From: Leptospirales bacterium
Lineage (GTDB): Bacteria; Spirochaetota; Leptospiria; Turneriellales; JAOUFE01
Assembly (NCBI GenBank): GCA_040326155.1
Contig: JBEQLE010000030.1
Span: 1 to 44,507 of the forward strand
Length of the DNA stretch: 44,507 bases
Direction: 5' to 3'
A program made the position numbers and the translations under genes. Numbering within the stretch: position 1 is the first letter of the stretch; each line of letters begins with the position of its first letter. Under the pieces are notes generated by a model. That model saw only the letters and a list, made by a program, of their open reading frames with translations. It searched no databases and was not told the DNA's origin. Below, one piece after another: positions 13,415-44,456 of the stretch.

Positions 13415-14137
13415 TTAGTCGCCTTGCCTGATAATTTGTTTTATTGCGAAATCTTCCAGAGTCGGGGTTAAAACCGGTTTTACATCCTTGTAATCGAGTT
13501 TAAATTCACTGGAGACTTTTTGCAAAGCTTCTTTTGCAGAAAACCGACTACAAAGGCTGAAAAAATGGACTAAAAAAGGGGTCACCTCATGAAAATGAAC
13601 TTCGTTGTCTAAAAAATCATAATATAAGACAATAGGAAAATTACCCAGAGTTTCAAACTCACCCAGGTGTATGCCATAGACCATTTTACGCAAATTCGCA
13701 GACTCATGTATAATCCACTGCTTTTCCCAAGTAAACGGAACCAATTCAGTTTTCCGGTAATTTTTCATAAACAATTCCACTTCTATCCATTCATACCAGA
13801 GCAAATCTTCAACATATGGAAAATCGTCCCTCATATTCTTACCGATTACAAAGTTACGAAATTCATCGGGCATTTGCCAGATATAGGGAGTTGAAGGTTT
13901 CGTAAGTATAAATTCAGCGATCAACCTTTGAAAAAGTTCATTACCGATTTTTTGAGCAAAAACAGGAAAACTATTTTGCAGAACTTCCCTGAATCGATAT
14001 TGCACCAGGTCACGATAAAGATGGAGACGGTTTTCATTGCCACCCGAAATTTCTGTTTCACCGGTTATATGCGATATAAACCGTTTTTGTATCTCATGCT
14101 CCAGCAAAAGCCCTTTAGGTTTATGGTCAAGGTTCAT
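13415..14137 (-). CDS. DUF2063-type MNIO partner protein (HvfC/BufC-like)
   Basis: RLHLYRDLV...LQNSFPV...STPYIWQMPDEF...DLLWYEWIE; overlaps the end of the DUF692 gene by 11 nt. Confidence 0.85.
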   Translation of the reverse strand: MNLDHKPKGLLLEHEIQKRFISHITGETEISGGNENRLHLYRDLVQYRFREVLQNSFPVFAQKIGNELFQRLIAEFILTKPSTPYIWQMPDEFRNFVIGKNMRDDFPYVEDLLWYEWIEVELFMKNYRKTELVPFTWEKQWIIHESANLRKMVYGIHLGEFETLGNFPIVLYYDFLDNEVHFHEVTPFLVHFFSLCSRFSAKEALQKVSSEFKLDYKDVKPVLTPTLEDFAIKQIIRQGD

Positions 14138-14957
14138 AATATGTGTTCGTAATTCCTTTTAACAATGCGTACTCTTTTTCGATCTCGCCCAGAGGGGGAA
14201 TATTATTGTCCCGCTCCAATAAAACAGGAGCGCGAACCAAATTTAGAGTAAATTTCAACAGTTCCCATACCTCATCGATCACGGGTTTTCCATGGGTGTC
14301 CACATAGATTTCCTCCTGCTCAAACCAGGAATGCCCGGCAACATGAAGATAAGCGACTCGATCAAGCGATAGATTTTTTATAAAAAGTTTCGGGTCAAAT
14401 CCGTGATTCACCGAATTTACATAGACATTATTAACATCGAGAAGCATTGGCATTCCAGATTTTTCAAGCACAAGGTTAATAAATTCAGATTCCGGCATTT
14501 CAGCATAAGGAACATGATAATAAGTGGCATTTTCCATAATGACAGGCATACCGAGAAAATCAGCCGCTTTTTTCAGTTTATCTGCTATAAAATTAGCCAT
14601 GGCCACTGTCATGGGCACAGGCAAAAGTTCATAGGTCTGCCCCCCCGAAAAAGCAGAAAAACTAAGGTGCTCGGAATAGTGTTTTATGTTAAAAAGTTCG
14701 AAAAAGGTTTTTACCTCACTCAGAAAATTCAGGTTGAGTGGGTCAACAGAACCAATGGAAAGTGAAAGGCCGTGCGCGACTAAAGGTATACCTTCAATGA
14801 CCTTTTCAAAATAATCGCGAAACTCAAAGGGCATTGAAATCCAGTTTTCGGGAACAATTTCATACCAATCTGGTCTAAAATCGGAGTTTTGCAGGCTACG
14901 TAAAAATTCACGCCGCAGACCTACCCCACACCCGGAAATCCCCTCAAGAGTTACCAT
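14127..14957 (-). CDS. DUF692 multinuclear non-heme iron oxidase (MNIO; HvfB/BufB/MbnB/TglH family)
   Basis: GVGLRR, EIVPENW, HGLSLSIGS, YSEHLS, MEN, LLDVNNVYVN, YLHVAGH, DTHG, LLERD. Confidence 0.95.
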   Translation of the reverse strand: MVTLEGISGCGVGLRREFLRSLQNSDFRPDWYEIVPENWISMPFEFRDYFEKVIEGIPLVAHGLSLSIGSVDPLNLNFLSEVKTFFELFNIKHYSEHLSFSAFSGGQTYELLPVPMTVAMANFIADKLKKAADFLGMPVIMENATYYHVPYAEMPESEFINLVLEKSGMPMLLDVNNVYVNSVNHGFDPKLFIKNLSLDRVAYLHVAGHSWFEQEEIYVDTHGKPVIDEVWELLKFTLNLVRAPVLLERDNNIPPLGEIEKEYALLKGITNTYYEP

Positions 14958-14990
14958 TCCTTTAAAATTTGTACTTCTGACTAATGTGTA

Positions 14991-15299
14991 CTAATTACCG
15001 GTTGTATCTTTCTCGGTTTTGCCCGATTCAGGTGTTTCACCCTTTTCAACATCATATAAAGACGCATCGTCTTTATGTGCACCGTCTTTATGTGCACCGT
15101 CTTTATGCGCATCGTCTTTATGTGCATCTGGACACTCTTTCATAGAACCACATTTGCCGGCTCCACATTTCATCTCTTCGCATTTTTTATCTGAGGCTTC
15201 TTTATCTTTTGATTCTGCGGTTTTATCACTACAAGCGACCGAACCACTTATTGCTGTACCCAGCACAAGCGCTAGTAACATTTTTTTATCGTTTTTCAT
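14991..15299 (-). CDS. Oxazolin/bufferin-like RiPP precursor with lipoprotein signal and His repeats
   Basis: Hydrophobic leader ending SVA-C23; KKCEEMKCGAGKCG core (HvfA-like KCG motifs); (AHKDx)4; lies directly upstream of the MNIO. Confidence 0.85.
   Translation of the reverse strand: MKNDKKMLLALVLGTAISGSVACSDKTAESKDKEASDKKCEEMKCGAGKCGSMKECPDAHKDDAHKDGAHKDGAHKDDASLYDVEKGETPESGKTEKDTTGN
15064..15128. repeat. 15-bp tandem repeat, about 4.3 copies, encoding AHKD(D/G)
   Basis: gca(t/c)cgtctttatg(t/c) x4 plus gcatc. Confidence 0.95.
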
Positions 15300-16984: not shown

Positions 16985-17164
16985 ATGGAAGCAAGTGAAA
17001 AGAAAGTATATGACGCCATAAAAGCAGCCAAAGAACCGGTAAAATCCGCTCAAGTGGCCGATGCAACAGGTATCGACAAAAAAGATATAGCTAAAATCAT
17101 AAAAAAGTTGAAAACTGACGGAAAAGTAATCTCACCCAAAAACTGCTATTATAGCGCAAACTAA
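16985..17164 (+). CDS. Small winged-helix protein (59 aa)
   Basis: Below the track cutoff. MEASEKKVYDAIKAAKEPVKSAQVADATGIDKKDIAKIIKKLKTDGKVISPKNCYYSAN; SD AAAGGA; HTH-plus-wing pattern. Confidence 0.8.
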   Translation: MEASEKKVYDAIKAAKEPVKSAQVADATGIDKKDIAKIIKKLKTDGKVISPKNCYYSAN

Positions 17165-17498: not shown

Positions 17499-17533
17499 AA
17501 CCCGGGCGGGGCACAAGCCCCGCCCGGGTTTTT
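17499..17533 (+). terminator. Strong GC-rich hairpin, likely an intrinsic terminator
   Basis: AACCCGGGCGGGGC-ACAA-GCCCCGCCCGGGTT, a perfect 14-bp stem followed by Ts. A second, weaker hairpin lies at about 17447-17491. Confidence 0.7.
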
Positions 17534-17898
17534 GCTACCCCCCGATTCCATATCTATTCTATAGATTTAAACAAAACGGTATTTTTCTGTAAAAACCCGA
17601 AAAACCATCGCGGCTATCGGGGCTCAAGCCAAAAACCGCTAAAATTTTTTTGTGCAACCATAGAAGAAATTTGACGAAAGATCAAAAATCCAATGTGCTG
17701 AACTCTATATCGGATTTACTTGGAAGCCCGAAAAAATTTGAATATAGTTTAAATATCTGAGATGTCGTAAGAAGTTGAAATATACCATTTACAGATACAT
17801 AATCATGACAAAAAATGATTTTACATGATTATTGGGTTTTATATACTCACTATGAAATTAAGGCGACCTGATAGGCACTTTTTTCACGGAGGTAGATT

Positions 17899-18804
17899 AT
17901 GAGTTATGACGACATGGAATTCAGAAAATTTACATACAAAAGTGAGTTTGATAAGTCAATCCATACTTTAGAAGGAATATTAACGGGAATATCGCTCGAT
18001 AGACAGATAAATGAAGTTGAAGTTTCAGAGTTGCAAATTTGGTTATCTGCTCATTCTGAATTTAATCATAAACAGCCGTTCAAAGAATTAATACCAATTA
18101 TTAGTGAAGCAATTTCAGATAATTATTTAGATGAGGAAGAGAAAAAAAACATTCTTTGGTTTTGCGAAAATTACCATGCAGATAATAAGTTTTACGATTC
18201 AATCACACATGATATTCAAGTTTTACACGGAATATTACATGGCATCATTTCCGATAATATTATTTCAGATGGAGAAGTTATTAATCTGCAGAAATGGTTA
18301 AGTGATAGAGAACATTTATCTGGGTGCTATCCTTATGACGAATTAAATGGTTTGCTGCTTGAAATTTTAAAGGATGGTATAATTGACGATAATGAACGGA
18401 AGGTATTGCAAAAATTTTTTAGTGAATTCGCTTTAATCTTTGTTGATAGCAAAATTAATGTCAGTTTAACTGATACATATGAAACACCAATATCTATATC
18501 TGGCATTTGTGCCGCGGACCCAAATATATATTTTTCTGAAAAAGTCTTTTGTTTTACTGGCAAATCCTCTCGCACTAAGCGAAGTGATTTGATCGATATT
18601 GTGAATAGTTTAGGTGGTGTTTATGTAAACAGTATTTCCAAAAACACTGATTATTTAATCGTGGGCGATGGAGGTAATCCTGCATGGGCATATTCTTGCT
18701 ATGGACGAAAAGTTGAGGAAGCAATGGAGATCAGAAAAAACGGGTCAAAAGTGATTGTAGCACATGAAAATGATTTTTGGGATGCAGTTCAAGACCAGAA
18801 TTAA
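17899..18804 (+). CDS. Tandem TerB-like helical repeats plus C-terminal BRCT domain
   Basis: Four D-x-x-(I/L)-x-x-x-E motifs (DRQINEVE, DNYLDEEE, DNIISDGE, DGIIDDNE); BRCT FCFTG...GG...TDYLIVG...YGRKVEEA...HENDFW; SD GGAGG. Confidence 0.82.
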   Translation: MSYDDMEFRKFTYKSEFDKSIHTLEGILTGISLDRQINEVEVSELQIWLSAHSEFNHKQPFKELIPIISEAISDNYLDEEEKKNILWFCENYHADNKFYDSITHDIQVLHGILHGIISDNIISDGEVINLQKWLSDREHLSGCYPYDELNGLLLEILKDGIIDDNERKVLQKFFSEFALIFVDSKINVSLTDTYETPISISGICAADPNIYFSEKVFCFTGKSSRTKRSDLIDIVNSLGGVYVNSISKNTDYLIVGDGGNPAWAYSCYGRKVEEAMEIRKNGSKVIVAHENDFWDAVQDQN

Positions 18805-18892
18805 TTCTTTAAAAAGCATTGACACCATAAATTTACTATGTCTTTTATGAAACAATTTCCTACATTGGAAAAGTAATAAATGGTGGTAACAC

Positions 18893-21082
18893 ATGGGCTT
18901 TTTTATCTTTCTTTCAGCTATTGTCATAATAATTTTTGTAAAAAGGGCTAAAAAATCTTCAAACCAAAAGAAGAATGTACGAGTTAGATATACAGATGAA
19001 GGCAAAAGTTACCTTTCAGATTCAAGTATTTTCAATACTGGATACTCAAGTTACAAACGGCAAGCCGCAAAAACGACATTTTACGGAGAGTGTACTTCAA
19101 TAAGTGTAAATGGGTTACTATTAGTTAGCCCCTTTGTCTACGTCTCGAGTGATTCACCGCATAAGACATCTGCGCTGCCGCATATTATATTTGAAAAAAG
19201 TAAAATAATACAATCAGATGCGGAAGTACAATTACACTATTGGCCAAGTTACTCAGACATTCAAGGCGAAGCCAGATATCAATTACTAAAATGGTTGTCT
19301 GATGGAAAAAATAGTGCAGACTTGAATATCGGTCTTCTGTTTATTTATTTTTACAATTTAGAATATCGGGCGATTAAAGAGGGAAAAGACCTTCTGCCTA
19401 TTTTGAAAGAACTCATTAGACTCTACAATTTATTCAGTTTTAATGGTTCCTTTTGTGGTTATGCTGGTGCACTAATTGGATATATTATATTTGCATTGCC
19501 CATTGAGGAGGTGACGCCAAATATAAAAAGTACGGTCATGGACATTATTAAGAGTTCAACTAACTATTCAACACTAAAAACATCTGGTATTAATTTTTAC
19601 TTGAACAAGCAAACAGTGCCAACGAAAGAAAACCTTTTAGAATATGTAATTAGCCAGCCGCGGAGTAAGAACTCCGTGATACCAGACAAAGTAGGGCAAA
19701 TATTTAAAGACTATTTTATTGAATTAACTATCAGGAAAATACCTGATATAATGGATAATTTTACATTGCAGAAGTGTGATTTAAATTACCATTGGGCGTC
19801 TTCCGCCGGATACGCCGAAAGAGATAAAATTATCAAAGGGATGAATCCGGTGATGCCCTCAAAACATCGGAACCGATTAATCAAACTATGGGACAAATGC
19901 ATTGAAGATTTCAGGCCATACAGCAGGAAAATTAACAAAGGAACAGAGGTAGAGCTATTTGACCTATTGCCAAGTGATGCTAAAGATATTCTGCCAAATA
20001 AACTTGCAAATAATTTACATAGCTTTTTCAATGACAATAAAAATACGCCGGTTACTATAAGCGATTTTTTAGAAAGCATCAACTCTGAAGAAAAGCTTAC
20101 TTTGAATTTTTCTAAGAGGTTATCAAGAATAGTCAATGATATAGGATATGCAATCGAACCGGATGTTTCACATACAAATAGATCATATAAGACCGACGAT
20201 TTTATAGTTCTTTTTGAAAAGTCCGGGGAACTGAAAAATTCCTCCGATTATTTTACCGCAACATTAATTTTTGATCTGGGGATGATGATATCTCAGGCAG
20301 ACGATGAAATTCATATTAAGGAAGTTGATACCATTGAGAACTTTGTTATTTCAAATTTGTGCAAAAATAATATTGCAAAAAACAGAATTAGCAAAAGGCG
20401 CCTACTGGCAACAACGGGGAAATTAAATTTTTCTGGTGTCGCAAAAAGTATTGCTACCCGACTAAAGCCTAAAGATATTGAACCAATTGCAGAATATTTA
20501 TACTCGGTTGCTGCTGCTGATGGGAAAATATTGTATGCAGAAATTAAGGCAATTCGCAAGATTGTTAAAGGATTCGGCCTATCTCAAAGTTTTATTGATA
20601 CAATTGAAACGAAATTGGGGATAGCTGAACCAATAACTTCTGCGATATTACAAAGTAAATCGGGAGTAAGAAAAAAAGGGAGCGCAATACCCCCGAAACC
20701 AAACATTGCACCAGAAGTTACTGTTAATATCAATGTAAAGAAACTCGAACAATTGAAAATAGAAACGAGCGCAGTTCAAAATACCTTAAAAAATGTATTT
20801 ACAGAAGATGAAGCTGAAGTGGAAGCCATTATAACACAAGAGATAAAACAGGAAGCGGCAAATGATGTTACTGTGTTAGAAACTAAATTCTTACCATTTT
20901 ATAATCATATAATAACAGAAGAAGCCTGGGAGAAACCTGCATTACGTAAAATAGCTTTAGAGCATGGGTTTATGGTAGATGAAGCTATTGAATCTATAAA
21001 CGAATGGTCGGACGAGAACCTGGGTGATTTTCTCGTTGTTGAAAAAGATAAATATCATGTTAGTTTGGAATTGTTAAAATAA
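18893..21082 (+). CDS. TerB_N-TerB-TerB_C membrane-anchored protein
   Basis: N-terminal TM helix; TerB_N motifs LHYWPSYS...RYQLLKWL and IGLLFIYFYNLEYR; TerB motifs QADDEI..KE and AAADGKI..AE; TerB_C motif IESINEWSDENLGD. Confidence 0.87.
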   Translation: MGFFIFLSAIVIIIFVKRAKKSSNQKKNVRVRYTDEGKSYLSDSSIFNTGYSSYKRQAAKTTFYGECTSISVNGLLLVSPFVYVSSDSPHKTSALPHIIFEKSKIIQSDAEVQLHYWPSYSDIQGEARYQLLKWLSDGKNSADLNIGLLFIYFYNLEYRAIKEGKDLLPILKELIRLYNLFSFNGSFCGYAGALIGYIIFALPIEEVTPNIKSTVMDIIKSSTNYSTLKTSGINFYLNKQTVPTKENLLEYVISQPRSKNSVIPDKVGQIFKDYFIELTIRKIPDIMDNFTLQKCDLNYHWASSAGYAERDKIIKGMNPVMPSKHRNRLIKLWDKCIEDFRPYSRKINKGTEVELFDLLPSDAKDILPNKLANNLHSFFNDNKNTPVTISDFLESINSEEKLTLNFSKRLSRIVNDIGYAIEPDVSHTNRSYKTDDFIVLFEKSGELKNSSDYFTATLIFDLGMMISQADDEIHIKEVDTIENFVISNLCKNNIAKNRISKRRLLATTGKLNFSGVAKSIATRLKPKDIEPIAEYLYSVAAADGKILYAEIKAIRKIVKGFGLSQSFIDTIETKLGIAEPITSAILQSKSGVRKKGSAIPPKPNIAPEVTVNINVKKLEQLKIETSAVQNTLKNVFTEDEAEVEAIITQEIKQEAANDVTVLETKFLPFYNHIITEEAWEKPALRKIALEHGFMVDEAIESINEWSDENLGDFLVVEKDKYHVSLELLK

Positions 21083-21092
21083 AGGAGTAAAC

Positions 21093-22364
21093 ATGTCTAA
21101 ATTGAAAGAGAGAGAGCGTACGGCAATAATCAACTCGTTAAGATCAGGAGTTGTCCCACGAATTGGTCTCCATCATATTCAGGTTGGAAGAAATGATGAA
21201 GTGTCTGAAATTATAAAAGACATAGAAAAATTGTCAAAGCAATCGTCCAGTATTCGTTTAATTATTGGCGATTACGGATCAGGAAAATCATTTTTTCTTA
21301 ATTTATCAAATACAATTGCACATACATACAATGCGATTACAAGTATAGCTGATATCTCAATGGAAAAAACTTTATACTCTCGGGACGGGAAAGCCAGGGC
21401 ATTATACACGGAAATTATTAAAGGTTTATCGACAAAGTCCAGACCTGACGGCAATGCATTGCGAACTATAATTGATTCATGGATTTCGAAAACGATTGGT
21501 ATTGAAGAAGATGTTCCTAAAGAAAAAATATACAAAGAATTAGCCCACCTTAGAGAGCTGGTTTCTGGTTACGATTTTAGCGATATTATTTGCCAGTATT
21601 ATGATGGATATATTAATGACGATGAAATATTATGTGAAAACTGTCTTCGATGGTTACGCGGCGAGTATGCAACCAAGACGGATGCCAAAAAAGATTTACC
21701 CGTTACTGGCATAGTAGATGATCGAAACTATTATGATTATTTGAAAATTATTGCAGAATTTGTCAGGATGGCCGGTTACTCAGGGCTTGTTATTTGTATA
21801 GACGAATTGGCTGTTTTAACCAGATTGCAAAGCAATGTTCGTGCAAAAAATTATGAAACTATTCTCAAGATGCTAAATGATATTTTGCAAGGCAATGTGA
21901 ATGGAATTAGTTTGGTTTTAAGCGGAACACCTGAATTTTTGAAAGATAAAAGAAAGGGATTATATAGTTATGGAGCTCTGGAGTCTCGTTTAAGTTCTAA
22001 CTCTTTTTCACGCGGAGAATTTAAAGATCTGTCAGGCCCTGTAATCGAACTTGATAATCTCTCACAAGAGGAATTATTTCTTGTATTTGGGAATATTCGC
22101 AATGTATTTGCATACCATGATACTGCTAAGCACTTAATAGATGATAAAGGAATTGTCATCTTTATGGAGAAACTGTTCAGCCGAATGGGCGCCGCAAGCT
22201 ACCTATCGCCGCGTGAAGCCATTAAGGATTTTGTTCACGTATTGAATCTTGCCGAGTCACATCCAGACAAAGGGTGGGAGTTCTTTTTAACAGAAGCAAA
22301 CAGCGATGCTTTGGAACAGACCACGCAGGCCGGCACGAACGACCTGAACAGTTTCAAGCTTTAA
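21093..22364 (+). CDS. DUF2791 / BrxD-like P-loop ATPase
   Basis: IINSLRSGVVPRIGL..IQVGR, Walker A GDYGSGKS, RWLRGE, Walker B VICIDE, GLYSYGALESRL. Confidence 0.9.
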   Translation: MSKLKERERTAIINSLRSGVVPRIGLHHIQVGRNDEVSEIIKDIEKLSKQSSSIRLIIGDYGSGKSFFLNLSNTIAHTYNAITSIADISMEKTLYSRDGKARALYTEIIKGLSTKSRPDGNALRTIIDSWISKTIGIEEDVPKEKIYKELAHLRELVSGYDFSDIICQYYDGYINDDEILCENCLRWLRGEYATKTDAKKDLPVTGIVDDRNYYDYLKIIAEFVRMAGYSGLVICIDELAVLTRLQSNVRAKNYETILKMLNDILQGNVNGISLVLSGTPEFLKDKRKGLYSYGALESRLSSNSFSRGEFKDLSGPVIELDNLSQEELFLVFGNIRNVFAYHDTAKHLIDDKGIVIFMEKLFSRMGAASYLSPREAIKDFVHVLNLAESHPDKGWEFFLTEANSDALEQTTQAGTNDLNSFKL

Positions 22365-22368
22365 GAAA

Positions 22369-24489
22369 ATGGATACATTTTCCAAACTTCATGAGGGAGT
22401 TCAAAAAGCAATTTGGAGATTAAATTGGGAGAATTTTAGACCCATACAGGATAAAGCGATCGATTGCATAATTAATTCCAATAATGATTTGATTATCTCC
22501 TCGCCAACAGCGAGTGGCAAAACGGAGGCCGCTTTCTTACCTGCAATTTCGGAAACTGCAAATGAGCTGCACGAAAGTGTTTGTATTCTGTATGTATCAC
22601 CATTGAAAGCGTTGATAAATGACCAGTTTGATAGAGTGGAAAATTTATGCTCCGAATTACAGATAACCGTTACAAAATGGCACGGCGACGCATCCAATAC
22701 TGCGAAACGCAAAATAACCAAGAATCCTAAAGGAATTATACTTATCACCCCGGAGTCGATAGAAGCTCTACTGATACGCAAATCAAATGAAACGAGAAAT
22801 ATATTCAAAAATCTCAAATTTATTATAATTGATGAATTGCATTCTTTTTTAGCGAAAGAAAGAGGTGATCAGCTCCGTTCGCAGATTGAAAGAATTAAAA
22901 ACATAATACCAACAACACCAAGAATAATAGGTTTATCTGCTACAATTGGCGATGAATTAAATGCAAAATTGTGGATTCAAGATAATCCAAATAGTGTTGA
23001 ATTTATAAAGGAAAATCAAGATGGCTTACGTAAAGAAAAACACGGTTCGGTGCATTGCTTTGATCAGTACGACCAAGATATTATAAACTATCAAAAATAT
23101 TTATATGAAGAAACCAGAATTGGTGTCAATTTGATCTTTGCGAACTCAAAAAAGATTTTAGAAAAGCAGTGTTCGAATCTGAAACAGATTGCAAAACTTA
23201 GAAACCATTCAGATAATTATTCTATTCACCATGGTTCTCTCTCGAAAGAAATTCGTGAAGATGTTGAGGAAAACCTGAAGGATACAAAAATTAGAAACAT
23301 TTCTGTATTTTGTACAAATACGCTGGAGCTGGGGATTGATATAGGTAATATAGATAAGGTATTCTTAATTGAACCTATAAATTCAGTATCATCGTTTATT
23401 CAGAGAATTGGACGAAGCGGAAGATTGGATGATATGCCAATTAATTTTAGTTTTTTGATTTATATTGAAAAGCTTGAAAGCAATAGTCTTGAATATGATA
23501 AAGTTAGATTAGATATTATAAAATGTATCGCAATAACATTGCTGATGCTGGAAGAATGGTGTGAACCGAATCCGCCATCATTAAGGGAACCCTCTGTGCT
23601 TGCTCACCAATTGCTTTCACATATTGCGCAATACGGAGAAGCCAAAACATCTAATACCTATGATTTAATAGTCGATAATTCATTTAGGAAATATCTGAAT
23701 ATTGAAGAATTTAAGGAATTATTGATTTTCTTAAACGATCAAGATTATATTTATCAAGATACAGAAATGAACTTACGTTTGTCTTCTAAGGGCGAGGTAT
23801 TAACAGAGCATTACGAGTTTTATGCAGTTTTTAGCAGTCCGGATGAATGGCGTGTATTATATACCGGCAAAGAAATTGGGAAAATACCAATTCTTGCAAG
23901 CTATCAAATTGACGATAAGATACTTTTAGCGGGAAGAATGTGGAAAATTATTGATATTCAAGAAGAGGTCAAGTCGATTTTGGTTTTACCTGCTGGCGGA
24001 GGCAAGCCTGCTTCATTTGGCAATGTTTCCTTCGAAATTCATAAAAAGGTACACGAAAAAATGGTCGAGATATTGAATTCAGAGGACATCCCGGTTTTTT
24101 TGACTGAGAATAGTGTCAATGCCTTAGCAGAAGGTCGATTGAATTTTAATAATATGAAACAAGAACTAGGTACATTTTTTTCCGTTTTTCAGGGTTCCAG
24201 AATTCAGTCTACATTAGCATTATTTTTTAAAAGAATAAAGATTATCTCAGAATCACAAGAAGCCTTTTTTATTTTGAAAAAGATTACCAAGGAGGAAGCT
24301 ATAAAGAAAATGAAAATACAATCTGAAAAACTTTCCACGTTAGCAGATTATATTTTGAATGAGGTTCGATATAAGGATAAACTTATGTATAAATATGATT
24401 ATCTTTTGCCAAATAGTATTCTTTCTCGAGCGTACGTAGACAGGTTTTTGGATATAGAGGGTGCATTATCATTTTTGAAAAATTTGTGA
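22369..24489 (+). CDS. Lhr-like DEAD/DEAH-box helicase (BrxHI-like)
   Basis: PTASGKTEAA, SPLKALINDQ, TPES, DELH, SAT, HHGSLS, TLELGIDIG, QRIGRSGR. Confidence 0.92.
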   Translation: MDTFSKLHEGVQKAIWRLNWENFRPIQDKAIDCIINSNNDLIISSPTASGKTEAAFLPAISETANELHESVCILYVSPLKALINDQFDRVENLCSELQITVTKWHGDASNTAKRKITKNPKGIILITPESIEALLIRKSNETRNIFKNLKFIIIDELHSFLAKERGDQLRSQIERIKNIIPTTPRIIGLSATIGDELNAKLWIQDNPNSVEFIKENQDGLRKEKHGSVHCFDQYDQDIINYQKYLYEETRIGVNLIFANSKKILEKQCSNLKQIAKLRNHSDNYSIHHGSLSKEIREDVEENLKDTKIRNISVFCTNTLELGIDIGNIDKVFLIEPINSVSSFIQRIGRSGRLDDMPINFSFLIYIEKLESNSLEYDKVRLDIIKCIAITLLMLEEWCEPNPPSLREPSVLAHQLLSHIAQYGEAKTSNTYDLIVDNSFRKYLNIEEFKELLIFLNDQDYIYQDTEMNLRLSSKGEVLTEHYEFYAVFSSPDEWRVLYTGKEIGKIPILASYQIDDKILLAGRMWKIIDIQEEVKSILVLPAGGGKPASFGNVSFEIHKKVHEKMVEILNSEDIPVFLTENSVNALAEGRLNFNNMKQELGTFFSVFQGSRIQSTLALFFKRIKIISESQEAFFILKKITKEEAIKKMKIQSEKLSTLADYILNEVRYKDKLMYKYDYLLPNSILSRAYVDRFLDIEGALSFLKNL

Positions 24490-24631
24490 TCCAAGAAGTT
24501 TTGTTGAATAAAACGATTTCTATCACTACTACAAACACAACTCGAACGAAGCAACTTCGCCGGGCTCCCGTGCCAAAAGCCGTAGGATTTTTTTGTGCAA
24601 TAAATATGAAATATTTGCCGAAAAAGTTAGT

Positions 24632-25372
24632 ATGATCATTCAAACCGGTATTTCCGACTATTCAAGTCAAAAATTACGGTGGGCTCAATACGCAGCAAAT
24701 TCGCAGAGTGAAAATAATACCGATTCCACATCAGAAAAAGTCAAAACTACGAATATGCAGGTAGATAAGGCTGATATTTCCGTACACGGAAGAATGAAAG
24801 CCAGACTAATGAGTCTTCGGGAAGTGCGCAATAATATTAAAAGTGGAATCGAAATGCTGGAAACTGCTGACAAAGGCGTAAGGACAATTCTGACCATTCT
24901 CGAGAAAATCAAGGACCTGGCGGTGCAATCCATAAACGGTATTTACTCTAAAGATCACCGTCAACTGATTCAAGTCCAGGTTTCAGAGCTCATTGACGAA
25001 GTAGACCGAATTGTAGAGAGTACCGAATATAACTCAAAAACATTATTAGATGGAGATTACTCTCGACACTCGCGTAAAGCTTCCATGTGGATGCAAATAG
25101 GTCCGAATATGCATGAACGAGAGCGAATTTTCATAAGTACAATGAGCGCTCTAAACCTCCGCCTCTCGAATGTGAAGGGAGAAATAGCAAGTGTCTCTAC
25201 CCCGAAATCAGCACAAGAGACTCTCGATACGCTGGAGTATTCGTTATACCGCGTAAAGAAACAGTTGGCCGATATTGAAGGGTACAACGAACGGTTTAAA
25301 GAAACTCAAATAAAAGTAAACGCCGAGATCGAGTTGCTCGAAAAAAACCTCGGTGAAACAGAAAAACGGTAA
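24632..25372 (+). CDS. Flagellin (FlaB)-derived protein lacking canonical D0 termini
   Basis: D1 motifs LAVQSINGIYS..RQLIQVQVSELIDEVDRI, ASMWMQIGPN..ERERI and QLADIEGYNERF; no LSSGxRIN and no RIRDADxA...QAN. The ATG at 24632 is preferred. Confidence 0.85.
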   Translation: MIIQTGISDYSSQKLRWAQYAANSQSENNTDSTSEKVKTTNMQVDKADISVHGRMKARLMSLREVRNNIKSGIEMLETADKGVRTILTILEKIKDLAVQSINGIYSKDHRQLIQVQVSELIDEVDRIVESTEYNSKTLLDGDYSRHSRKASMWMQIGPNMHERERIFISTMSALNLRLSNVKGEIASVSTPKSAQETLDTLEYSLYRVKKQLADIEGYNERFKETQIKVNAEIELLEKNLGETEKR

Positions 25373-25376
25373 AACT

Positions 25377-26171
25377 ATGATCATTCAAACCAATATAGAC
25401 AGAATCAATCAAAATAAAATAAATCTGGCGGCAAACCATACGGAAAACAAAAGCCGAGTAAATGGCAATGTAGTTAATACAAACTCAACCAATAAAATTG
25501 TGACCGATGCGACCAAGCCGACCGATAAAAGCGAAATTTCCGTTCGCGGCAAAATGACGACTCGTCTAATGAGCCTGCGCCAGGCAAGACAAAATGTAAC
25601 CTACGGAATGAATTTACTAGAAACAGCCGATCTCGCTCTAAAATCTATGCAAAGAATATTGCAAAAAATACGAGTGCTTGCAGTTAAGTCGTCCAACGGA
25701 ACATATACCGAAACGGACAGACAAGGTTTTCAAGTTCAGGTTTCCCAATTGATTGATGAAATCGACCGCATTTCCTCACAAAGTGAATTTAATTCTATGA
25801 AACTGCTTCAGGGTGATTTAGCGCGCGGTTCAAGATTAGCTTCCATGTGGATACAAATGGGCCCCAATATGCACGAGCGCGAAAGAGTTTTCCTGTCGAC
25901 TATGACCGCCGGAGCTTTGCGGATGAGAAGTTATAACGGTGGTATTCTCACAATATCTACGGCAGGTTTAGCGAATGATGCAATTGGAGTAATTGATGAT
26001 GCGCTTGAAAGGGTATATCAAACACGGGGCGATGTCAAAGGGTATACGATCAGGTTCGAAGAGGCCATAGAAAAAACTGATGACGAAATAGAATTACTCG
26101 AGAAATCTTTAGAAGCTGAGTTCGAAGAACCGGACATAGAGAAAGAGCTGAAAAAGAATAAACAAAGATAA
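25377..26171 (+). CDS. Flagellin (FlaB)-derived protein lacking canonical D0 termini
   Basis: LRQARQN..GMNLLETA, IRVLAVKSSNGTY..DRQ..QVQVSQLIDEIDRISSQSEFN, ARGSRLASMWIQMGPN; a charged tail replaces the C-terminal D0. Confidence 0.87.
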   Translation: MIIQTNIDRINQNKINLAANHTENKSRVNGNVVNTNSTNKIVTDATKPTDKSEISVRGKMTTRLMSLRQARQNVTYGMNLLETADLALKSMQRILQKIRVLAVKSSNGTYTETDRQGFQVQVSQLIDEIDRISSQSEFNSMKLLQGDLARGSRLASMWIQMGPNMHERERVFLSTMTAGALRMRSYNGGILTISTAGLANDAIGVIDDALERVYQTRGDVKGYTIRFEEAIEKTDDEIELLEKSLEAEFEEPDIEKELKKNKQR

Positions 26172-26177
26172 TTTTAA

Positions 26178-26798
26178 ATGAAGATGAAAACAACGATATT
26201 ATTAATCCTGGTTTTTACCCAGCTCGACTACGTTTCATCGCTAACATTGAGCACTCAAAACGGTGTAGACAACGGCAAAAAAATAACTATAAACAACTCT
26301 GACAAAATGACCGAGCTGTTAAAATATGTCGAACAAAACCTTGTGGTATTATATGAAATCTTACAAAGAAACAGAGTCCTTGCAGTAAAGGCGGCAAATG
26401 GAATATACACGCCACGCCAGAGAGGGAATTTTAACCAGTCGTTCCAGGAGATGTTCAAAGAGGCGGCGCGTACAATACGAAGGGCAAAATATAATAATTA
26501 TCCATTGCTTGAGTTCACAAACCAAAAATGGGCAGCGCACCTCGTATTAAAACTCGATAGAAAGGATGAACCGGTTGTCTATTCACTTCCCAGAATCTAC
26601 TCCCAAAACTACGGGTACGATAGCTGGTCTCACAACGAAAAAATAGGATGGCCAAATGTAAAAACCACCTGGGAGGCAAGCGCAGCTCTGGGCGATATTG
26701 ATAAAGCATTGGGACAGCTTGATAGCGAACTTACCCTCGTCAGGGCGGTTATACAACGGTTAAACATAGCTAAAAAAGTAGACCATAAAATTAAGTAA
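26178..26798 (+). CDS. Divergent flagellin-D1-like protein with signal-peptide-like N-terminus
   Basis: MKMKTTILLILVF...; ILQRNRVLAVKAANGIYT..QR; AKYNNYPLL; ALGDIDKALGQL...QRL. Confidence 0.72.
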   Translation: MKMKTTILLILVFTQLDYVSSLTLSTQNGVDNGKKITINNSDKMTELLKYVEQNLVVLYEILQRNRVLAVKAANGIYTPRQRGNFNQSFQEMFKEAARTIRRAKYNNYPLLEFTNQKWAAHLVLKLDRKDEPVVYSLPRIYSQNYGYDSWSHNEKIGWPNVKTTWEASAALGDIDKALGQLDSELTLVRAVIQRLNIAKKVDHKIK

Positions 26799-44069: not shown

Positions 44070-44456
44070 ATAGGTGTAATAGCCAAAATCTTCAATTTAT
44101 TTCACTAATTTCAAATAAAAAGAAAAAAAGCGAAGGGGGAGATTGGGTAAGACCTCATTTTGCATTTTCCATTCTCCCCTCGTTCCAAATTTTTTACTTC
44201 CCGCGCCTTGAATGCGCTGAAAATAAAAAGATTTTCCACTACCCCTCTTATACTCTGAGCCACCAAAAATCGCAGGATTTTTTGTAACTTATATACCACG
44301 AAGCAGTTGAAAAAAAACGACGTTTTTTTTTCAAACCAACTTTAAACAATAATCGAACGAAGCGACACAAAATAACCGAAGGATTATTTTGTGCACTAAA
44401 AAAGAAAAAATCACCAATATCTGAAAAAATTTCCAACTTTTGCCTATTACACTTAT

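Follow-up and report, generated by a model that had tools for sequence, protein, structure and literature searches.

The window, i.e. the whole stretch of DNA analysed here, spans 44,507 nucleotides (positions 1 to 44,507 of contig JBEQLE010000030.1, Leptospirales bacterium assembly GCA_040326155.1) and contains a block of four co-oriented open reading frames (Table 1). The intergenic gaps between genes 1 and 2, 2 and 3, and 3 and 4 are 88, 10 and 4 bp. The GC content of the block is 0.344 vs. 0.396 genome-wide, and equally low values are found in 0.5% of 3358 equal-sized genome windows. The original prediction had described the block as AT-rich and co-oriented, with the 10 and 4 bp gaps, and as free of methylase, PglZ and obvious nuclease. 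Both descriptions are confirmed; none of these domains is found among 28 window proteins with Pfam or among 14 with PADLOC.

Table 1. Coordinates of the four-gene block and of other features of the window
Feature	Position	Strand	Description
Putative RiPP genes	13415-15299	-	MbnB/TglH/ChrH-family enzyme and DUF2063 partner, with a 102-aa open reading frame upstream
Small open reading frame	16985-17164	+	59 aa
Hairpin	17499-17530		Perfect 14-bp GC-rich hairpin
Direct repeat, upstream copy	17632-17657		26 nt
gene 1	17899-18804	+	301 aa; two helical repeats and C-terminal BRCT; PHROG 3989 / K139 Orf2 family
sngA (gene 2)	18893-21082	+	729 aa; predicted N-terminal membrane anchor, TerB_N, TerB, TerB_C
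sngB (gene 3)	21093-22364	+	423 aa; DUF2791 / BrxC_BrxD-family ATPase
sngC (gene 4)	22369-24489	+	706 aa; SF2 DEAH helicase
Direct repeat, downstream copy	24575-24600		26 nt
Flagellin genes	24593-26798		Three genes with flagellin N domain
Further copy of dispersed motif	~44371-44407		Motif of ~23-30 nt

The block is flanked by housekeeping-type and flagellin-like genes, as assigned by Pfam. Strong PADLOC matches among the 14 window proteins are confined to the four genes; thus the block is a lone cassette rather than a large defence island. A promoter/terminator scan, which reports consensus matches only, places promoter-like sites in front of gene 1, whereas the stretch between genes 1 and 2 shows neither a terminator nor a promoter.

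The small open reading frame approximately 730 bp upstream of gene 1 has the appearance, by eye, of a small winged helix-turn-helix protein and gives no Pfam match. The minus strand genes further upstream likely represent a RiPP cluster. The three flagellin genes lie immediately 3′ of the block.

Genes 2-4 and the Shango system

The gene 2 product matches the PADLOC model for SngA (E-value = 3.8e-40), which is its sole PADLOC match, and its TerB_N, TerB and TerB_C domains are all above Pfam cut-offs. There is a hydrophobic helix at the N-terminus (19-residue hydropathy 2.2). The gene 3 product matches SngB with an E-value = 2.4e-142 (473 bits) vs. 6.2e-58 (195 bits) for BrxD, and its NCBIfam BREX_BrxD score of 189 bits is below the cut-off of 350. 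It shows an intact Walker A motif at position 59 and Walker B at position 234, and yields no solved-structure relative at E <= 0.01. The gene 4 product matches SngC with an E-value = 4.2e-200 (665 bits) vs. 9.2e-115 (382 bits) for BrxHI. Its helicase motifs are intact (motif I at 46, DELH at 155, SAT at 190, motif VI at 345) and no nuclease domain is found in it. The catalytic motifs that had been called intact are thus all located, and the resemblance of the ATPase and helicase to BrxD/BrxHI noted in the original prediction is present as secondary matches.

In a quick tree of 33 helicases, consisting of 29 Shango rows and four BrxHI-like rows, the window SngC is situated inside the Shango clade with a support of 100, separate from the BrxHI-like rows. 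The available text of PMC12278908 places SngC and BrxHI together in a single clade of defence helicases. The gene order, TerB protein, ATPase and helicase, all adjacent and co-oriented, matches the order reported for PA14.

Shango was named by Millman et al. (10.1101/2022.05.11.491447), whose text, as far as available, reports anti-phage protection and suggests membrane surveillance. Johnson et al. (10.1101/2022.11.11.516204 = PMC10250203), in the portion available, describe a three-gene Shango giving 10-100-fold phage protection in P. aeruginosa. Judged by sequence, genes 2-4 are a complete, intact copy of this named anti-phage system, for which protection is shown with other members. The copy shares with Shango the three families, their order, the tight coupling and the intact motifs; however it is divergent, the best SngA relative being 27% identical in one search and 34% in locus L112, and it bears an extra upstream BRCT gene, of which there is no mention in the accessible parts of the published descriptions. 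The proposal of an anti-phage cassette thus agrees with the match of genes 2-4 to an experimentally tested system. The original prediction had also held the block to be a candidate stand-alone system, with a match to an already named one as the finding that would remove its novelty; PADLOC finds such a system in genes 2-4 and the novelty is therefore lost.

Shango is widespread, since 686 plasmid records contain an SngB relative at E <= 1e-40. A metagenome scan with SngB gave four loci only.

The gene 1 protein

Gene 1 matches PHROG 3989, a family annotated as being of unknown function, with an E-value = 1.2e-81 over residues 8-299. It shares 30% identity with Orf2 of Vibrio phage K139 over 292 aa (E-value = 9e-34). 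The homology is full-length, and the proteins have equal length and the same domain layout. The family consists of 686 proteins, and its conserved motifs are intact in gene 1.

The two repeats of gene 1 extend over positions ~13-95 and ~100-180, with an internal repeat score of 107 vs. 27 +/- 5 for shuffled sequences. The BRCT domain (positions ~210-301) is a Pfam match, and its fold aligns with that of the DNA-binding BRCT of RFC p140 (Z = 9.4, rmsd 2.3, 78 aligned), which is one among many BRCT domains that score similarly. Pfam gives the BRCT domain alone; TerB and catalytic domains are not found by it.

A TerB identity of the repeats is plausible but tentative. Pfam TerB matches, themselves weak, are found in 35 of 80 family members, the best with an E-value = 3.8e-5. 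The N-terminal half aligns with the TerB structure 2ou3 (Z = 6.2, rmsd 4.2, 128 aligned) at rank 11; the best Z, 7.5, belongs to an unrelated helical protein, and Foldseek gives no match to this half at E <= 0.001. A sequence search of solved structures gives four weak rows. The profile match of gene 1 to the TerB region of SngA has a probability of 12%, with both acidic DG-I-E motifs in register. Thus the TerB label given by the original prediction holds for gene 2, with its three Pfam domains, and is weak for gene 1, where there is no direct TerB match. TerB-BRCT architectures may have been described already by Anantharaman in 2012.

Gene 1 also shows a weak PADLOC match (E-value = 1.1e-4) to the candidate system PDC-S48, in which a DEDDh exonuclease is followed by a BRCT-like part at the C-terminal end. 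The match covers the BRCT region only and the N-terminal exonuclease of PDC-S48 is absent from gene 1, whereas gene 1 relatives fused to an exonuclease match more widely.

Genomic settings of the gene 1 family

The family is usually found in prophage immunity regions, between repressor and integrase. In the 80 best of 135 viral loci, a repressor-like or ImmA gene lies no more than three genes upstream in 51 cases and an integrase no more than four genes downstream in 42; Shango is present in none of the 80. K139 Orf2 itself is situated in the lysogenic operon cI-orf2-glo-int. In contrast, gene 1 leads a Shango cassette, and Pfam shows no repressor or integrase domain near it among the 28 window proteins. 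Orf2 was reportedly described by Nesper et al. in 1999 as helping to prevent superinfection. A passage that cites Nesper 1999, in the part of its source available, names Glo and not Orf2 as the exclusion protein.

By hand count, 27 of 150 immediate neighbours of the gene 1 family match PADLOC models at E <= 1e-15, compared with five of 106 control genes more than 6.5 kb distant. The Fisher p value is 0.002, or 0.007 without one generic helicase and three sngA rows that are redundant, and is overstated because kin are not independent and the PADLOC matches include generic ATPases and helicases. The matching neighbours include Mokosh, Old, Lamassu, AbiD, SoFic and Hhe-like. An enrichment of homologues beside defence genes, proposed as a check by the original prediction, is thus observed for gene 1.

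Other associations are also found. In Flavobacterium (L095:10990-15402, L131 and L132), a gene 1 family member leads a 1460-1610-aa SF1 helicase, which displays a C-terminal restriction-type nuclease domain (PDC-S37/Hhe-like). The proteins P0163, P0165 and P0166 (570-1070 aa) start with the gene 1 repeat pair, and the large region that follows matches nothing in Pfam or PADLOC.

Pairing of gene 1 with Shango

Twenty-four Shango-type loci were retrieved through SngB or SngC and thus independently of gene 1. Gene 1 is present in two and absent from 22; 19 of the 24 locus maps, which were read by eye, extend far enough to show whichever gene precedes sngA. A search of 301 Flavobacterium genomes finds SngB in 11 and the gene 1 family in eight, and the two are adjacent in two genomes, one of which is the seed genome. 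Among 401 genomes of the class of Flavobacterium, a full SngC is present in five and gene 1 in eight, again adjacent in two with the seed included. A search of 401 genomes of the window's own phylum showed an SngB-family match in 10, and gene 1 is not found within the stretches retrieved for the other nine loci.

When genome loci of the gene 1 family are considered (best 80 of 258), six carry sngB and sngC and a seventh ends inside sngA. Four Flavobacterium loci keep the gene order of the window with gaps of 6-35 bp. Gene 1 is directly upstream of sngA in the window and in the Bacteroidota loci L057, L067, L078, L085, L122 and L220, with L086 partial. In L040 it is located 81 bp behind sngC, and in another locus two genes behind. 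The pairing therefore recurs in three phyla, spirochaetes, Bacteroidota and Bacillota. No description of it was found in the literature searched.

A quick tree of gene 1 (85 rows, L050 left out) does not place the Shango-linked copies in one clade and forces at least four changes. This tree (AU test on 35 of the 85 rows, p = 8e-25) and the SngC tree (p = 5e-11) both reject the idea that the pairing arose once. The window gene 1 clusters with four homologues from spirochaetes, none of which has Shango in its vicinity. With so few of the 24 loci carrying gene 1, and with the trees rejecting a single origin, gene 1 is a facultative neighbour of Shango and not an obligatory part of it. The four-gene unit of the original prediction is consequently not a fixed one.

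SngC fusions and DNA-end modules

A 1029-aa protein consists of SngC fused in frame to an entire gene 1 module. A second fusion, 98% identical, is present on a separate contig, so a single assembly error is unlikely, although the two still represent one lineage. No second lineage with the full fusion is found in the best 150 representatives at 50% identity, where clustering could hide some. The natural fusion gives some support to the proposal of the original prediction in which DNA ends would be sensed by the BRCT protein on behalf of the helicase. Complex prediction with SngC and gene 1 gave a score of 0.00 twice, which is evidence in neither direction.

Seventeen of the SngC-like matches are longer than 800 aa, and 15 of them were scanned for domains. 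Seven of the 15 carry a DEDDh exonuclease at the C-terminal end, two of these with WYL and one with BRCT in addition. SngC is the best-scoring model for each of the seven, and the whole of PDC-S48 is present in two. These are candidate nuclease-bearing Shango variants. The same exonuclease family is fused in 16 of 52 longer gene 1 relatives, and in L121 an exonuclease-BRCT gene comes after the Shango locus. The helicase, the exonuclease and the BRCT module thus occur in several combinations, which would fit action at DNA ends. Thus the pairing and fusion of gene 1 hint that Shango may act on free DNA ends.

The C-terminally fused SngC helicases are P0252, P0264, P0265, P0294, P0312, P0335, P0337 and P0296; one of them shows a weak metallo-beta-lactamase-fold match.

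Proposed function and alternatives

The explanation favoured here, with moderate confidence, is a complete Shango cassette together with an optional gene 1 of a prophage family, likely blocking phages largely alone. Gene 1 is likely an optional anti-phage add-on because members of a prophage family have repeatedly moved beside Shango and, in a single lineage, are joined to its helicase. SngA would be anchored in the inner membrane via its N-terminal helix, where it likely detects phage entry, and would then engage the SngB ATPase. On phage DNA that enters the cell, SngB would load the SngC helicase or activate it, and SngC would stall phage DNA replication without cutting, a step proposed because no nuclease is encoded here. 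The BRCT domain of gene 1 likely binds free DNA ends, e.g. those of an injected linear genome, and the gene would have been collected in front of Shango, as often happens with defence genes. Against a gene 1 that acts by itself, the pairing is commoner than chance placement and the operon layout is kept, and the SngC fusion suggests a real coupling.

The core of the locus is an ordinary Shango. Of importance, the repeated association of gene 1 with Shango and its natural fusion to SngC bear on two questions: what PHROG 3989 does, and how TerB-type defence proteins protect, the latter stated to be unclear in the available part of a 2025 preprint (10.1101/2025.09.30.679545).

A possible but more doubtful explanation makes gene 1 a genuine accessory subunit in a Shango variant of four genes, with the BRCT domain binding phage DNA ends and recruiting or activating SngC, and gene 1 being one of several exchangeable end modules. 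The in-frame fusion on two contigs argues for this, as do the positions of gene 1 directly upstream of sngA or, in L040, behind sngC, and the DEDDh exonuclease that recurs at the end of long SngC-like proteins, in the gene that follows Shango in L121 and in longer gene 1 relatives. However, the great majority of Shango-type loci are without gene 1, the trees give the partners no shared history, the full fusion was recovered from one lineage, and a fusion can arise when the stop codon that separates two adjacent genes is lost. In addition, the validated Shango functions with three genes according to the available text of Johnson et al. (PMC10250203). If gene 1 were a subunit, Shango would target free DNA ends via exchangeable modules at the helicase tail, and the large K139 Orf2 family would be tied to a defined defence motor. 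The BRCT module would then have been taken up from prophage immunity regions on several occasions, docking on SngC.

It is unlikely that gene 1 has no defence role and is a passenger of prophage origin, with a DNA-repair or regulatory function, in an insertion hotspot. BRCT domains typically occur in repair proteins, gene 1 is without a catalytic domain, most copies are found in prophage immunity regions, and 123 of the 150 immediate neighbours show no strong defence match. But defence genes are enriched among these neighbours, the pairing with Shango occurs in three phyla, the conserved motifs are intact, and Orf2 reportedly has a role in superinfection.

Type 2 BREX is defined by the presence, next to BrxD/BrxHI, of Pgl core genes for a kinase, a methylase and PglZ, and its ATPase and helicase are homologous to those of the block. 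That the block is a type 2 BREX remnant or a tellurite/stress operon instead of Shango is highly improbable: the secondary BrxD and BrxHI matches and the TerB domains point that way, but the Sng models score far higher, the NCBIfam BrxD score is below its cut-off, the helicase falls with Shango in the tree, a TerB protein is in front, and there are no Pgl genes among the 28 (Pfam) or 14 (PADLOC) window proteins and no other ter genes among the 28. PADLOC scoring can separate Shango from BREX, because another ATPase-helicase pair of this genome (G000:C97, L116:7722-12757, minus strand) scores better as BrxD/BrxHI. This second pair is preceded by a 522-aa protein that has no PADLOC match at E <= 1e-15.

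Origin of the cassette and repeat elements

A joint arrival of the four genes as a single AT-rich cassette is probable; codon use and the negative searches of related genomes fit it without proving it. The codon use of gene 1 fits that of the sng genes better than does 98.9% of 1974 genome genes, which may reflect just a shared low GC3. Neither sngB nor gene 1 is found in three genomes of the same family (93-94% complete), in which no positive control was detected either. No empty insertion site could be delimited, as the 30 relatives compared are not syntenic across the block.

The block is flanked by the two copies of a 26-nt direct repeat. This repeat was considered as an insertion scar and rejected; it belongs to an intergenic motif dispersed over the genome, with 86 copies (up to 3 mismatches) vs. 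none in one mononucleotide shuffle. The dispersed motif, of which another copy is found near the end of the window, is part of longer REP-like repeats. The hairpin upstream of gene 1 also recurs elsewhere.
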